From: an uncultured Clostridia bacterium
Lineage (GTDB): Bacteria; Bacillota; Clostridia; RGIG6154
Length of the DNA stretch: 32,003 nucleotides
Reading direction: 5' to 3'
Assembly: GCA_944388555.1 (NCBI GenBank)
Contig: CALXJH010000128.1
Span: forward strand, 1-32,003
A program made the translations under genes and the position numbers. This document shows positions 12,166 through 32,003 of the stretch, in pieces; the stretch's first letter is position 1; every line of letters begins with the position of its first letter. Under the pieces are notes generated by a model. The model was given only the letters and a program-made list of their open reading frames with translations. It was not told the DNA's origin and made no database searches.

Positions 12166-12241
12166 GGCACGCCCGGAGGGATTCGAACCCCCGACCTTTT
12201 GGTTCGTAGCCAAACACTCTATCCAGCTGAGCTACGGGCGC
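12165..12241 (-). tRNA. tRNA-Arg(ACG)
   Basis: GCGCCCGTAGCTCAGCTGGATAGAGTGTTTGGCTACGAACCAAAAGGTCGGGGGTTCGAATCCCTCCGGGCGTGCCA folds as a cloverleaf with anticodon ACG and an encoded CCA. Confidence 0.98.
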
Positions 12242-21775: not shown

Positions 21776-22945
21776 ATGAAAAAATATTTATTACATTTTT
21801 TAGCTCTTGTTATTTGTATCGTGAACGTCCAGATCGCAGCTTCTGCTGAACAGGCATACGATACAGAGCAATTACCTTCGTTCACGACATTTCAAGATGT
21901 CCTCCATATCGACGATATAACCGCCATTCAATACGGCGTTATTGTAAACAGCATCACGAAAAAATGCGCCGACATTGACTATGAAGATTTAAGAAAATGG
22001 CTGGACACCTACTGGAACTTTCATTATGACCGCGTTATCGCGCCTATGGAAGCATTCAGTCTGGACGGAGAGTATATTAAATTGTGGAATGAAGATAAGA
22101 GTCAAGCATTTATTGTTTATCCCGGCGGCGGCATTATTGCAGGAAAATACGGAGAGCCATATGAATTAAACGGAGTCGTCAAGCAGAATTATGTTTGGTA
22201 TCTTCCCTATATTGGTAACGCAAGAAACGCATTGAACACGGCGAACGGTACATTAAAATATACCTACATAACCCAAGTAAACGAAATGGAATTTAAAGCG
22301 CAAAACCAAAGAGAATTTACGAAAGACGATGACATAGAAATCCCACAGGCTGATTTGCTCATCACGCATAATGCAAGCTCGTGGGCTGTTGACGAAATTA
22401 AAAAAGCGGCTGCCTGTAATTTAATGGTCTATGATTTATCTGCCAAATATACGCAGCCTATTACAAGGTATGAATTTTGCAGACTGGTATATCGCTTGAT
22501 TGCAACAGAGTTTGAACCAAATACAGATTCAAGACTGGGCATTGAAATGACAATCCGGGATGTATTATCTCAAAGAGGCATTACAGACCGCGTTACATTC
22601 TCTGATTGCTCATATTTGGAGGTTGAATATTTAGCCTCAATGGATATAATCCAAGGAATGGGTGATGGAACGTTTGCACCTGATGCATATATTACCCGTG
22701 AACAAGCCGCAGCACTTTTATACAGAACCGCTGCATTTTTGGGAAACAAAACGCTCGTTGCTCCAACCAATAATGGAATATACGATGACCAAGCTTTCAT
22801 CTCTAATTGGGCATTAGACGCTGTTGCAAGCATGAAAGCCATGGGAATTATGCAAGGTGTTTCAGAAACAGAGTTCGCACCGCAAGATACCTACACCACA
22901 GAACAAGCCATTGCAACCATGTTAAGATTATATGAGTGCAATTAA
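21776..22945 (+). CDS. Secreted protein with an unknown N-terminal domain and C-terminal SLH repeats
   Basis: MKK signal peptide ending AASA; SLH motifs ITRYEF, G.GDGTFAPDAYITREQAA and G....FAPQ..YT.EQA; RBS AGGAGG 9 nt before ATG 21776. Confidence 0.85.
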   Translation: MKKYLLHFLALVICIVNVQIAASAEQAYDTEQLPSFTTFQDVLHIDDITAIQYGVIVNSITKKCADIDYEDLRKWLDTYWNFHYDRVIAPMEAFSLDGEYIKLWNEDKSQAFIVYPGGGIIAGKYGEPYELNGVVKQNYVWYLPYIGNARNALNTANGTLKYTYITQVNEMEFKAQNQREFTKDDDIEIPQADLLITHNASSWAVDEIKKAAACNLMVYDLSAKYTQPITRYEFCRLVYRLIATEFEPNTDSRLGIEMTIRDVLSQRGITDRVTFSDCSYLEVEYLASMDIIQGMGDGTFAPDAYITREQAAALLYRTAAFLGNKTLVAPTNNGIYDDQAFISNWALDAVASMKAMGIMQGVSETEFAPQDTYTTEQAIATMLRLYECN

Positions 22946-28499: not shown

Positions 28500-29606
28500 T
28501 CATTTCTCGCCAAATACACGTTTTACTGCCTGAAGGTATCCGTAACCATAAACATTATCCGGTTCTAAGTAACTGCTTTCGGTCCACTCATTCCAGCTGT
28601 TGATGGTAATCATCGGCACATTATGTCCCTCTGCATACGCCTTGGCTAATTGCAGTGCTTTTTCAAAATTTTCCGGCGTATTGTTTTTTAAAACCGCCCC
28701 ATGTGGCAATTTGAATCTGGGGTTATTGTCCCACCCGATAGATACATGCGGAAAATAAGGAATTTTGAAGGTTGCCGCAATTTTTTCATATTCTTTTTGT
28801 ACATCTTCTACAACCTTTAAATAGTCCTGGCTTATATCTGTAAAGTGTACAAACTGATAATGCGTCAGCGACAAAAAGCCCATGTCTTCTGCAATTTGTG
28901 GTGTAACCTCTTTTATTTTACTGTCCACACCTGAAAGATTCAGCGGATTATGCCCCCATTTCACAAACTGGAAATGTACACCCGGTAATCCATTCTGTCT
29001 GGCTTCTTCATTGAGCCATGCCATTTCCATTTTGGCTTGTTCCGGTCCGCCAAGTCCGTTTGTAAAATTTTGCATATCGTATATACTGATGATCGGTTTT
29101 CCGTCTATACAGTAGTAGTTGGGAAGCTTAAAATATTTTTCAATCCACCGTTTGCCGATTTTTCTGAATTGCTCCGGCGTAACAGAACCTTGCCAAACCA
29201 CAGGTTCGTTTCGATGTGAGTTTCGAATATCCCATGTGTAATTTGCATCGTGGTTTGCCCACATCAGATAAAATTTCATTTTTTGATTATTTTTTGCATT
29301 TAAAAATCCATCGTTCAAACAATTTTCTAAAAACGGACGATCGTCAAACCAGTACCAATCGTAAATAAATACATTCACCCCGTGGTCCACTGCGGCTTCA
29401 ATCTGCATTTCCATAACATACGGATCTGCTTCGTTTACATATCCCCAAACCGGTTTTCTTCCCCAATCATAGCCGTCAACTTTGCGAACGCTGTTTTTTA
29501 CACTCTGCCATTCGCCGATACCTTCTTCCCAAAAGATCCATGACCGTGGCTCATCCCCCGTATACGCCGGCCAAATATAGGCTGCTACATCAAATTTTTG
29601 CTGCAT
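28500..29606 (-). CDS. GH99-like/WbsX-family TIM-barrel glycoside hydrolase, no signal peptide
   Basis: EW..V, P.WGY..E, F.YDWYW, LMWANHD, GWDNNPR and INSWNEWTE.SYLEP motifs; RBS AAGGAG 8 nt before ATG 29606. Confidence 0.82.
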   Translation of the reverse strand: MQQKFDVAAYIWPAYTGDEPRSWIFWEEGIGEWQSVKNSVRKVDGYDWGRKPVWGYVNEADPYVMEMQIEAAVDHGVNVFIYDWYWFDDRPFLENCLNDGFLNAKNNQKMKFYLMWANHDANYTWDIRNSHRNEPVVWQGSVTPEQFRKIGKRWIEKYFKLPNYYCIDGKPIISIYDMQNFTNGLGGPEQAKMEMAWLNEEARQNGLPGVHFQFVKWGHNPLNLSGVDSKIKEVTPQIAEDMGFLSLTHYQFVHFTDISQDYLKVVEDVQKEYEKIAATFKIPYFPHVSIGWDNNPRFKLPHGAVLKNNTPENFEKALQLAKAYAEGHNVPMITINSWNEWTESSYLEPDNVYGYGYLQAVKRVFGEK

Positions 29607-29690
29607 ATTCATCACTCCTTTTTATTATAGCTTTTTTCAGATAAAGACATTCTTTACCTATCAGCTTTCCCGATAAATTGAATATTTTTT

Positions 29691-29719
29691 ATTATATCTA
29701 TTTTTTGTTAAAAATGCAA
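29691..29719 (-). promoter_or_regulatory. Sigma-A promoter of the GH99-like gene
   Basis: TTGCAT-17 nt-TATAAT. Confidence 0.7.
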
Positions 29720-29725
29720 TCTTTT

Positions 29726-29755
29726 AAAAAAAAAAAACGACCACTTTCGTGGCCG
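29726..29755 (-). terminator. Terminator of the candidate sRNA
   Basis: CGGCCAC-GAAA-GTGGTCG followed by T12. Confidence 0.85.
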
Positions 29756-29906
29756 CCAAAAAGGGAGTGTTTGAAATGAAAAACTATACAGTTCCTCTGC
29801 AGAAATGTATAAGACGTAAGGCTACCCGGGGGATTCGCTCTTTTAGCAAAGAACGGAATAAGGATTTGAGGAGTTTTCGGATAGCCTTGCCTTATTACCT
29901 TCTACA
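29726..29906 (-). ncRNA. Candidate ~180-nt structured sRNA with anti-Shine-Dalgarno motifs
   Basis: TATAAT upstream and a terminator downstream. Several stems have irregular pairs that are G-U only on the minus strand. Unpaired C-rich motifs are present. Confidence 0.65.
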
Positions 29907-29912
29907 CTTATT

Positions 29913-29965
29913 ATTATACATATTGTTATGGAAAACCTATGATAAGAATGTGAAATTTTTTTGAA
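29913..29965 (-). promoter_or_regulatory. -10 box plus four 11-bp-periodic direct repeats (candidate OmpR/PhoB-type binding site) in place of -35
   Basis: TTCAAA-5-TTCACA-5-ATCATA-5-TCCATA-8-TATAAT. Confidence 0.5.
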
Positions 29966-30009
29966 AACTCCCCCTCCCCCTCATTTCCTCTATTACCAGA
30001 AATTGTGGC

Positions 30010-30038
30010 TTGATTTTTGATGACTTATCCTTTACAAT
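30010..30038 (+). promoter_or_regulatory. Sigma-A promoter of the S-layer-type gene
   Basis: TTGATT-17 nt-TACAAT, giving a leader of about 145 nt. Confidence 0.55.
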
Positions 30039-30188
30039 CGTAGATGTGGTTGACATAATCTAAAAAATGTTTAGCTGGTTGTGTTTTGTTTTCGAGCATT
30101 TTTTAAATTTTTCAAAATTATGGTAAACCAAATTTGACAGCCTGCCGTGGGGCAAATCACGGACTAAAATCATTAAGGAGGAAAAAAC

Positions 30189-32003
30189 ATGTCAAAATTC
30201 AAAAGAATTATATCCCTCGCTGTTGGTACAGTGATGGCATTGGGAATCGCAAGCCCGGCAGCCGCATTTAATATTGCTGATGACGTTGCAGGCACAAAAT
30301 ATGCAGAAGCTGCGACTGTGCTAGGTGCATTGGGCATCATGGTTGGTGATGACAACGGAGCATTTCGTCCTGATGACAATATAAGCCGCGCTGAATTTGC
30401 GAAAATTGCAGTTCATGCACTGGGTATTGAAAATATTGCTTCTTCAAACCAGGGTGTTTCGGTTTTCCCGGACGTTTCTACAAGCCACTGGGCAAACGGT
30501 TATATCAACGTTGCTTCTTCTCAGGGGTTGATCGTTGGTGATGATACGGGTACTTTCAGACCTGAAGACAATATTTCTTACCAAGAAGCTGCAACCATTT
30601 TAATCCGTGTATTAGGTCATGAACCTGCGGCAAAATCCAAAGGAGGCTATCCTTCCGGTTATTTGGTACAGGCTGAACAAATCGGTGTTACAAAAGACGT
30701 TAGTTCCACATCTACTGCTGCAGCATCCAGAGGTATGGTTGCACAGATGACTTTTAATTCTCTGACCGTAAACCTGATGGAACAAACCGGTTTTGGCAAT
30801 AACTTAAACTACGAAGTAGTAGACAAAACATTATTAGAAGATAAGTTGGATGTTTTCTACGATACAGGCGTTATCACAGGAAACGTACACACCAAAATCA
30901 ACGGCGCAAGTGCGTTGAAAGATGGTCAGGTTGAAATTGGAAACGGTAACGTTTTTGAAGTTGGAAACTCTGACGCAGACAAGCTTTTAGGCTACAACGT
31001 AAATTACTATTACAAAGAAAACAAAAATGATGATAATGAAATCATTTTGGCACAACCCACAAAAAGAAACAGTGAAGTTAAAATTGATGTAAATAATCTT
31101 GCGGAGGAATTGATAGAGGGAGCAAACAGCATATCTTACTATGCCGATGAAAATGACAGCAGAGCGACCAAAGCAAATCTCGCGGACAAGTATACTGTTA
31201 TTTATAACCAAAAATATCAGGATGCGCTTCAGAATCCTGAAACAGGTAATGTTACACTCTTAGACAATGACGGCGACAGCATCTATGACATCGTATTTAT
31301 CAATGAGCACGTAAATTACGTTATAGATGATATCTCCACATTCGCAATGAAAATTTATGACAAATATGACAACGAACCGTTAAACTTAGACACAACAGCC
31401 AACAAGAATTTAAAAGTTTTCATTCAGGACACAGAAGGAAATGAACTTGCATTCGAAGATTTAAAAGAATGGGACGTTCTGAGTGTTTATAAAAACACAG
31501 ATTATGTAAATATGATTGTTTCCAGAAACAGCGTTCAAGGCGCGATTGAAGAAAGCGGAGACAAAGGCGAAAAAGTAATTGCAGGAAAAGAATATGAAGT
31601 TGCAGGCAACCTGAATGCAAATGATTTGGAACTTGAAATGGAAGGTACCTTCTATTTGGATTTCGAAGGAAAAATCGCAGGTTATGACGCAACTGCAAGA
31701 CAAACATCCAACTACGCATATTTGCTGGATGCTGCTATGACTTCTGGTTTAAACCCTGTTCTTTCTGTAAAATTATTTGATGCAAAAGGCAATGAAGTGA
31801 TTTATAACGCACCTGATAAACTCCGTTTCAACGGAACATCCGGCGTACAATCTGCTACCGTTTTAGAATCTTTAAAAGATGACGGCACTGTAAAACCGCA
31901 GCTCATCACTTATGAATTAAACTCCGACGGTAAAATTGCAGAAATCGTTACAGCGGAAGATAAAACAGAAAACTTCCCCAGCAGCTTCTTAAAATCCACT
32001 TTT
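30189..32003 (+). CDS. S-layer-type protein with N-terminal SLH repeats; runs off the window end and is absent from the ORF track
   Basis: RBS AAGGAGG; MSKFKRIISLAVGTVMALGIASPAAA signal peptide; GIMVGDDNGAFRPDDNISRAEFAK, FPDVSTSHWANGYI and FRPEDNISYQEA SLH motifs. The frame appears open to the window edge. Confidence 0.9.
   Translation, partial: MSKFKRIISLAVGTVMALGIASPAAAFNIADDVAGTKYAEAATVLGALGIMVGDDNGAFRPDDNISRAEFAKIAVHALGIENIASSNQGVSVFPDVSTSHWANGYINVASSQGLIVGDDTGTFRPEDNISYQEAATILIRVLGHEPAAKSKGGYPSGYLVQAEQIGVTKDVSSTSTAAASRGMVAQMTFNSLTVNLMEQTGFGNNLNYEVVDKTLLEDKLDVFYDTGVITGNVHTKINGASALKDGQVEIGNGNVFEVGNSDADKLLGYNVNYYYKENKNDDNEIILAQPTKRNSEVKIDVNNLAEELIEGANSISYYADENDSRATKANLADKYTVIYNQKYQDALQNPETGNVTLLDNDGDSIYDIVFINEHVNYVIDDISTFAMKIYDKYDNEPLNLDTTANKNLKVFIQDTEGNELAFEDLKEWDVLSVYKNTDYVNMIVSRNSVQGAIEESGDKGEKVIAGKEYEVAGNLNANDLELEMEGTFYLDFEGKIAGYDATARQTSNYAYLLDAAMTSGLNPVLSVKLFDAKGNEVIYNAPDKLRFNGTSGVQSATVLESLKDDGTVKPQLITYELNSDGKIAEIVTAEDKTENFPSSFLKSTF

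Follow-up and report, generated by a model that had tools for sequence, protein, structure and literature searches.

A conserved candidate small RNA gene with unpaired Shine-Dalgarno-complementary motifs in an order of uncultured gut Clostridia

Hardly any regulatory RNAs have been described from uncultured gut Clostridia. We analyzed a 32,003-nucleotide stretch of DNA (the window) from an uncultured Clostridia bacterium (NCBI GenBank assembly GCA_944388555.1, contig CALXJH010000128.1, positions 1 to 32,003 of the forward strand), in which an initial annotation had proposed a trans-acting small RNA (sRNA) on the minus strand at 29726-29906, displaying the complement of a ribosome-binding site (RBS) together with the AUG-AAA that follows it. 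The interval lies divergent from a gene for a surface-layer (S-layer) protein with S-layer homology (SLH) domains, and its features are collected in Table 1. From its anatomy, its conservation across genera and the covariation of its predicted helices, we are confident, if short of certain, that it is a conserved, free-standing sRNA gene.

Anatomy of the locus

The TATAAT box, the long and inner stems, the unpaired regions and the GAAA-loop terminator with its U12 tract, all described in the initial annotation, were each recovered in place on the minus strand, and the element is single-copy in the source genome. Its promoter is unusual in having no recognizable -35 element 16 to 18 nt from the -10 box, and for this reason it was absent from the calls of our promoter scan. 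A TG dinucleotide abuts TATAAT directly and thus does not form a proper TGn extended -10. Upstream lies a direct repeat of two hexamers with an 11-bp period. Promoters without a -35 element that carry in-phase hexamer repeats upstream are the usual layout for activation by winged-helix response regulators, and the repeat may resemble WalR-type and PhoP-type boxes. The TTCAAA-N5-TTCACA repeat is a probable activator site of the response-regulator type.

Table 1. Positions of the candidate sRNA gene, its parts and the adjoining features (window coordinates; ORF, open reading frame)
Feature	Position	Strand	Remarks
Predicted sRNA, ~181 nt	29726..29906	-	5' end inferred from -10 box; 3' end placed at the last U of the tract
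-10 box TATAAT	29918-29913	-	ATATGTATAAT invariant across four species of genus g1
Upstream direct repeat TTCAAA-N5-TTCACA, 11-bp period	29949..29965	-	Ends 30 nt before the -10 box
5' structured domain	29798..29906	-	Outer stem from conserved 5' UGUAGAAGG, long stem and inner hairpin
Long stem	29894-29878 with 29828-29810	-	Encloses large loop
Inner hairpin	29855-29848 with 29843-29836	-	Within large loop of 5' domain
First exposed CU-rich motif AAAACUCCUCAAAU	29877-29864	-	Large loop of 5' domain; unpaired in predicted folds
Single-stranded stretch AGUUUUUCAUUUCAAACACUCCCUUUUU	29785-29758	-	Between last hairpin and terminator
Universal core AACACUCC	29771-29764	-	Inside single-stranded stretch AGUUUUUCAUUUCAAACACUCCCUUUUU
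Anti-AUG-AAA part	29785-29775	-	Inside AGUUUUUCAUUUCAAACACUCCCUUUUU; conserved in some genera only
Intrinsic terminator GGCGGCCAC-GAAA-GUGGUCGUU	29757-29736, T's to 29726	-	9-bp stem, three G-U pairs, GAAA loop, U12
Plus-strand ORF, 62 amino acids, ATG at 29776	29776..29964	+	Behind RBS-like reverse complement of the seed; judged a non-gene
S-layer (SLH-domain) gene, divergent neighbor, cut by window end	30189..32003	+	Pfam SLH, 3.5e-22
Promoter-like site of S-layer gene, TTTACA-17-CATAAT with TG	30031-30059	+	Promoter scan

Predicted folding distinguished the two strands. The minimum free energy (MFE) was -58.8 kcal/mol on the minus strand (z -5.54), a value that none of 200 shuffled sequences matched, compared to -43.7 kcal/mol on the plus strand (z -1.12), which 28 of 200 shuffles matched. 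This asymmetry is due to G-U pairs, which account for 8 of the 43 consensus pairs in the source sequence (G-U or U-G), and the strand call of the initial annotation, which drew on such pairs, is confirmed. One of its stems fared less well: the segments UAUACA (29811-29806) and UGUAUA (29790-29785) are both present and could form a hairpin as an alternative pairing, but the MFE fold places UAUACA in the long stem and pairs GAGGAACU, weakly, with AGUUUUUC.

Two further observations concern variation around the unit. A contig from a related strain covering 29570-30109 (a single low-depth contig from a library of unknown kind) is identical to the window across 29726-29906, differs from it at 29970 and 29981, and carries insertions after 29725 and 29975; another contig, probably of DNA origin, reached only the WbsX-like gene. 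The minus strand also bears a G-rich tract, GAGGGGGAGGGGGAG (C-rich when read on the plus strand), at 29980-30000 just upstream of the promoter repeat, which was not seen there in the other aligned genomes.

Homologues across five genera

The order of the source genome was represented by 18 genomes in six genera (here g1 to g6) of one family. Homologues of the same build were present in 16 of these genomes and in five of the genera: all four of g1 (which includes the source genome, G000), all four of g3, all four of g4, both of g5 and both of g6. BLAST with the window RNA returned full-length or two-piece matches in the three other g1 species. A seed pattern uncovered a shorter version in two g3 species, and BLAST with that version found the remaining two. 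A covariance model of the g3 RNAs then scored 36 and 33.6 bits in g4, where inspection revealed the same build and BLAST recovered all four species at 87% identity. For g6, a signature pattern (the repeat, 90-120 nt, then CACTCC) matched one genome, its sole match in five genomes with no control match, while a variant allowing 60-90 nt gave no match and one control match; BLAST led from there to the second g6 genome and, through the promoter, to one g5 genome, with the second g5 genome following. A metagenome scan with a pattern of the 5' end and loop motif returned 96 loci, none with the second motif within 200 nt, and these were dismissed as chance matches.

Genus g2 yielded no homologue by BLAST or pattern searches of its two genomes. 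The g3 covariance model re-found the g3 RNAs and did not recover those of g1, so a missing match to it is no test of absence; a weak covariance-model match in the source genome itself (contig C122) consisted of just an A/U-rich stretch and a terminator and was rejected. At the syntenic site, inspected in G004 and not in the other g2 genome, G009, the gap between the S-layer gene and a TrmH-like gene is without the sRNA unit. An ordinary TTGACA promoter is all that this gap contains (L409, G004:C113) at the place occupied by the sRNA in g5 and g6, which suggests that the sRNA was lost in g2.

The homologues share a common architecture. All 16 carry the direct repeat, TTC(A/G/T)NN-N4-TTTCACA, at 30-31 nt from the -10 box, and the promoter-proximal TTTCACA is invariant. 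The distal half reads TTCAAA in three g1 species, TTCATA in the fourth (G003), TTCGCA in g3, TTCATA in g4, TTCAAA in g6 and TTCTTT or TTCTTA in g5. The 5' end, UGU(A/U)(G/A)..., opens in every case a hairpin domain, 35-110 nt long, of which it makes up the outer arm, and a terminator hairpin followed by a T run on the sRNA strand closes each unit. Between the last hairpin and the terminator, every homologue displays a single-stranded CUCC core, which is AACACUCC in g1, g3 and g4, GACACUCC in g6 and AAACUCCC in g5. A second CU-rich motif occupies the loop of the first hairpin in g1 (AAACUCCUCAAAU), g4 (AAACUCUCUCUAAAU) and g6 (AAACUCUCUUAAAU), with ACUCCUCAAAU of this motif invariant across g1, and g6 has a third, UUCUCCACU, in its second loop.

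Compensatory changes in the stems support selection on RNA structure. Alignments by MAFFT across genera misalign the stems, so covariation was counted only within the pair G000 and G002 and within g3. G000 and G002 are 75% identical over the full length, and all 43 consensus pairs are kept in both, eight of them changed on both sides and seven on one side through G-U. This level of pairing and double change was reached by none of 500 column shuffles, and when partners were slid by 1-3 columns only 42-52% of positions paired, with 1-2 double changes. The compensatory pairs of the 5' domain fall in helices 3 and 5 of the consensus structure. Among the four g3 species, 7 of 27 pairs are double-changed and 87% of cells are paired, again beyond any of 500 shuffles. 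The terminator stem covaries within g1 (CG to UA and AU to GC), and the four g1 species, of which G001 and G003 were folded independently, share the same outline with differing stem sequences. These counts come from few related sequences with structures predicted on the same alignments, and are supportive rather than a formal test. All 16 homologues fold with z between -2.7 and -11.0. An RNAalifold alternative in which the 5' end pairs with the seed was dropped, as it is not conserved in g4.

The initial annotation had remarked that the sRNA gene is divergent from the S-layer gene, and this arrangement proved to be a conserved linkage: an SLH-domain S-layer orthologue is the divergent neighbor in 10 of the 16 homologues (G000, G003, the four g4, two g5 and two g6 genomes). 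The ten linked loci share a well-conserved intergenic region including the S-layer promoter, TTTACA-17-TGACATAAT. In g3, the sRNA unit instead lies between rnj and thrC, and the S-layer gene faces a parA-like gene; in G001 and G002 the sRNA is likewise away from the S-layer neighbor. Promoter, body and terminator have thus moved together, and this favors an autonomous gene.

The S-layer gene has conserved features of its own. Its promoter is preceded by TTGTGG(G/C)TTGA and is conserved across genera (30031-30188 and the corresponding regions of L011, L362, L364, L374, L375, L377 and L382). Its 5' untranslated region (UTR), of about 120 nt in the window and about 45 nt in g4, carries an element AUUAUG(N)(A/U)AACC located 25-60 nt before the Shine-Dalgarno (SD) sequence, which is conserved across genera and had no Rfam match.

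Repeats like that of the promoter also occur elsewhere. The exact repeat TTCACA-N5-TTCACA occurs in G000 148 nt upstream of a gene for a cell-wall hydrolase with NlpC/P60 and SH3 domains. It also stands directly before the -10 box of an HlyD-family gene in G000, and recurs in G001 and G002 (exact-repeat loci: G000:C49:1801-1817, L408; G000:C15:2196-2212, L402; G001:C54, L407; G002:C135, L401). At the HlyD-family gene the repeat is followed by 9 nt and then TGTATAAT, an arrangement kept in three g1 species. Across the 18 genomes the exact repeat was found 12 times compared to 7 for a reversed control, a mild enrichment. The repeats at the hydrolase and HlyD-family genes may be boxes of the same regulator that acts at the sRNA promoter. 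A related repeat, TTTACA-N5-TTTACA, lies at G000:C212:2484-2500, 80 nt upstream of a gene for a Na/Pi cotransporter with a PhoU domain (C212:2581-4317, L394), and from its resemblance to one may be a phosphate-regulon box.

Two other loci came to light during the searches. L352 (G015:C26:22928-23063, plus strand), in a g4 genome, resembles another free-standing sRNA, with a TTGACA-17-TATAAT promoter, hairpins, unpaired CCCCC and GCACUCCUUUUU motifs and a strong terminator, and may be a second CU-rich sRNA with a promoter type unlike that of the family described here. L087, on a contig of a cyanobacterial metagenome-assembled genome (MAG), carries the seed pattern followed by a strong terminator, faces only a 39-residue ORF and is probably a chance match.

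Unpaired motifs and predicted targets

The unpaired CUCC motifs are the most conserved unpaired nucleotides of the RNA, and the universal element joins an ACA prefix to an SD complement, (A)ACACUCC or AAACUCCC. We take this seed to resemble the ribosome's own anti-SD tail in 16S rRNA; no 16S 3' end was found in the source genome or its 17 relatives. The complete complement of RBS plus AUG-AAA that the initial annotation described is real in g1 and only its CUCC core is universal. The anti-AUG-AAA extension is also present in g5 (UUUCAUUUUAAACUCCC) and in two g3 species, half of that genus, and is absent in g4 and g6. The g3 RNAs, however, have the anti-AUG stretch paired with the 5' end, as the 3' strand of their first hairpin, and the two arms covary (GAAAGAAG/UUUUUUC, AAAGAAU/AUUCUUU and GAAUGAG/CUUCAUU).

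The g1 seed, once reverse-complemented, comes close to what a strong start region generally looks like in Firmicutes. Its pattern had 101 exact matches among species-representative genomes, 80 of which face ORFs that are at least 70 amino acids long or cut by the end of the locus, and which we read as true gene starts, most beginning with MKK or MKN. The 21 matches facing short ORFs include four from MAGs of this order (L070, L081, L082 and L101).

We predicted targets in the source genome from 1818 crude gene calls, using duplex energies without an accessibility term. The mean duplex energy of the seed was -11.7 kcal/mol at start regions and -7.6 kcal/mol in gene interiors. The 92 strongest predicted binders were enriched in signal-peptide-like N-termini (36 of them, compared to 295 of 1726 others; Fisher 1e-6). 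Twelve shuffled seeds nonetheless gave 16-29 signal-peptide-type genes among their 91-97 best binders, so the enrichment is partly generic and partly due to the AUG-AAA extension, and the proposal that the targets are secreted proteins of the MKK type gains weak, in silico support. The resemblance to the start of the SLH gene at 21776, also put forward in the initial annotation, is weakly supported in the same way, with that gene ranking 79 of 1818; serS ranked 36 and the divergent S-layer gene 1608. The top-ranked target, G000:C38:2463, belongs to no Pfam family and carries an exact 12-mer complement. No site outside the sRNA loci themselves matched the seed 20-mer with 0-1 mismatches. Pairing of the S-layer 5' UTR was no better than that of shuffles in the two genomes computed (169 of 200 shuffles as good in G000 and 61 of 200 in G003), and the neighboring S-layer mRNA is a poor predicted target.

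Mechanism, alternatives and relatives

The RNA matched no Rfam family, a match to one being among the results that the initial annotation had named as refuting it. Scanned against Rfam 15 at gathering thresholds, the whole window matched only a tRNA (12168-12241, minus strand, 65.6 bits). A permissive scan of 29550-30250 (E up to 10) gave eight matches, all far below their cut-offs, and none to RsaE, RNAIII, other Rsa RNAs, T-boxes or riboswitches. The best of these was tsr26 (RF02579), whose hairpin, U-rich stretch and terminator align loosely; at 20.6 bits against a gathering threshold of 141 (E 1.7) the match is at chance level and driven by the terminator, and we rejected membership. Full-text literature searches found known analogues and, among their results, no description of this RNA.

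Explanations without a trans-acting RNA have to account for the same anatomy. A cis-acting 5' leader or attenuator (riboswitch or T-box-like) of downstream minus-strand genes, here a WbsX-like gene and serS, would fit the terminator hairpin and the position of the unit upstream of, and co-oriented with, genes ending with serS in all four g1 species: a WbsX-family gene and then serS follow in the source genome and G002, sugar-acid genes (KDPG-aldolase-like) and then a WbsX-like gene and serS in G001, and serS directly in G003. Across genera, however, no constant downstream gene or pathway emerges, with thrC following in g3, a TrmH-like methyltransferase gene in g5 and g6 and a convergent gene in g4, and the next gene is 100-190 nt past the terminator, with promoter-like sequences in between. 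The permissive scan gave no T-box or riboswitch match, and no conserved antiterminator alternative was seen, although the search for one was not exhaustive. Because the downstream gene differs, is convergent in g4 and is preceded by promoter-like sequences past the terminator, we consider a leader highly improbable. A further possibility is a plus-strand product, either a leader peptide or a small protein translated from the ATG at 29776, to which the minus-strand RNA might be antisense in the manner of a type I toxin-antitoxin pair, and in g1 a canonical RBS, 8-nt spacer, ATG and AAA are indeed conserved, the ORFs share an MKNY/F start, and the 62-residue ORF of the window has a hydrophobic C-terminal stretch. 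Yet these ORFs span 62 amino acids here, 8, 18 and 14 in the other g1 species and 18 and 20 in two g3 species, without similarity past the MKN/MKK of their first residues, so that no small hydrophobic ORF is conserved on the opposite strand and conservation does not follow the plus-strand codons, the pattern that the initial annotation had named as speaking against an sRNA. The ATG varies within g3 and has no counterpart in g4 or g6, no promoter was predicted upstream of the ORF in the plus-strand scan, the plus strand is poorly structured here, and the T tract follows the hairpin on the minus strand only. The longest ORFs across the homologues are 1-46 amino acids in sense and 5-52 in antisense, with no conservation; by these measures coding signal is absent from either strand, and a plus-strand product is extremely improbable. 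The region also belongs to a conserved divergent promoter region, and might be no functional RNA at all, only intergenic DNA with S-layer regulatory sites and a terminator that folds by chance. Against this, compensatory changes keep the RNA helices, the promoter, body and terminator are retained after the move to another locus (g3, G001 and G002), and the syntenic gap of G004 lacks the entire unit, making this explanation very unlikely.

A free-standing sRNA with its own promoter and intrinsic terminator, no conserved ORF and C-rich unpaired motifs as its most conserved part in 16 of 16 homologues resembles, at the sequence level, the UCCC or CU-rich anti-SD sRNAs of low-GC Gram-positives, which are a functional class and not a homology family. 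Since the conservation of unpaired CUCC motifs is the reported signature of SD-blocking sRNAs in such bacteria (PMC2790875 and PMC4132741), we favor an anti-SD repressor. Several results weigh against this reading as a whole. Neither BLAST nor the g3 covariance model connects the genera, whose sequences are too dissimilar, leaving common descent to rest on shared promoter architecture, motif order and synteny. The antisense strands of most homologues also fold stably (z -1.0 to -7.0), and the strand call for homologues other than that of G000 therefore rests on the promoter and the T tract. The seed paired with start regions at -11.6 kcal/mol, compared to -10.9 +/- 0.6 for its own dinucleotide shuffles, 3 of 30 of which were as low, so target prediction has little specificity. 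The exact 12-mer complement stands at a single gene start elsewhere (G000:C38), its other matches being terminator stems or non-starts, and no orthologous gene recurs among the 21 closest near-complementary sites of five genomes, three of which are sRNA loci. A conserved sRNA that acts otherwise, by protein binding or titration or by an effect on the S-layer locus, with its CU-rich motifs recognizing a protein or another RNA, would accommodate this want of a specific or conserved mRNA target, the narrow margin of the seed over shuffles and the linkage to the S-layer gene across a well-conserved intergenic region in 10 of 16 homologues. But the conserved unpaired motif is the exact SD complement and, in three genera, runs in register over spacer and AUG, which a protein site would not need; the S-layer 5' UTR and start region paired no better than shuffles (two of eight genomes computed); and no candidate protein partner is known. 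We therefore hold this alternative to be unlikely.

On balance we lean towards the full statement that the gene founds a new sRNA family, confined within the range of our searches to a single order of uncultured gut Clostridia, that acts as a CU-rich anti-SD repressor. Under this proposal, transcription would begin at the promoter without a -35 element, probably requiring an activator bound to the in-phase direct repeat about 30 nt upstream of the -10 box, and would stop at the strong intrinsic terminator. The RNA would display one to three unpaired C/U-rich motifs complementary to SD sequences (GGAG with flanks) and could base-pair in trans with the ribosome-binding regions of several mRNAs, blocking translation initiation. 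In g1 the complementarity would span the spacer, the AUG and the first Lys codon, biasing the predicted target set towards largely exported proteins of the MKK or MKN type.

LhrC1-5 of Listeria monocytogenes block translation of the mRNA for a cell-wall adhesin by means of three UCCC sites that pair with its SD region, and their expression depends on LisR, a response regulator, and on promoter sequence lying upstream of position -53 or so (PMC4132741). The conserved repeat in our gene similarly lies about 43-59 nt upstream of the inferred start. The RNAs differ in that they have no sequence or Rfam-model similarity, in copy number (one compared to five), in the motif, which is CUCC(C/U) with an ACA prefix here and UCCC in the terminator loop in LhrC, and in host, ours being an uncultured Clostridia order. 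RsaE/RoxS, the Rsa UCCC-motif class and RNAIII of Staphylococcus aureus combine a 5' hairpin, one or more conserved unpaired C-rich motifs and a classical terminator, and SD occlusion has been proposed for them (PMC2790875). Our RNA has this architecture, with the C-rich motif most conserved and the helices variable. It is not a member of the class by permissive Rfam search, its phylogenetic range and genomic context differ, and in g1 and g5 its complementarity continues over the start codon. The SLH motif RNA is a riboswitch candidate located in the 5' leader of SLH-domain genes in Clostridia and in the same orientation (PMC6429828). Both RNAs are thus associated with genes for S-layer homology proteins in Clostridia; unlike the SLH motif, ours points away from the neighboring S-layer gene, carries a promoter and terminator of its own and, in g3, G001 and G002, lies apart from SLH genes. 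No Rfam family matched either strand of the sRNA/S-layer intergenic region in our scan, the presence of the SLH motif among the Rfam 15 models being unverified.

A bolder reading, which we offer tentatively and regard as rather unlikely, is that of an order-wide cell-envelope sRNA tied to the S-layer locus, switched on by a two-component response regulator at the conserved in-phase repeats, which here also precede a cell-wall hydrolase gene and an efflux gene, and globally throttling the synthesis of exported and surface proteins under envelope stress. Its exposed tail, which in some genera continues over the start codon and first lysine codon, would mimic the anti-SD of the ribosome and compete with ribosomes at the strongest MKK-type starts. 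If true, this would be a Gram-positive, S-layer-bearing counterpart of the enterobacterial envelope-stress sRNAs that shut down outer-membrane protein synthesis.

The anti-SD repressor that we favor overturns no principle, its proposed mechanism being already known. The candidate is unusually well supported for a purely computational find, through its promoter architecture, terminator, covarying helices and synteny over five genera, and it offers three handles, namely a short conserved seed, a fixed position next to the major S-layer gene and a site, probably for a transcription factor, that cell-wall genes share. Its confirmation would carry the CU-rich anti-SD mode of sRNA action beyond Bacilli into a distant order of Clostridia and provide a marker for envelope regulation in S-layer-bearing gut anaerobes.

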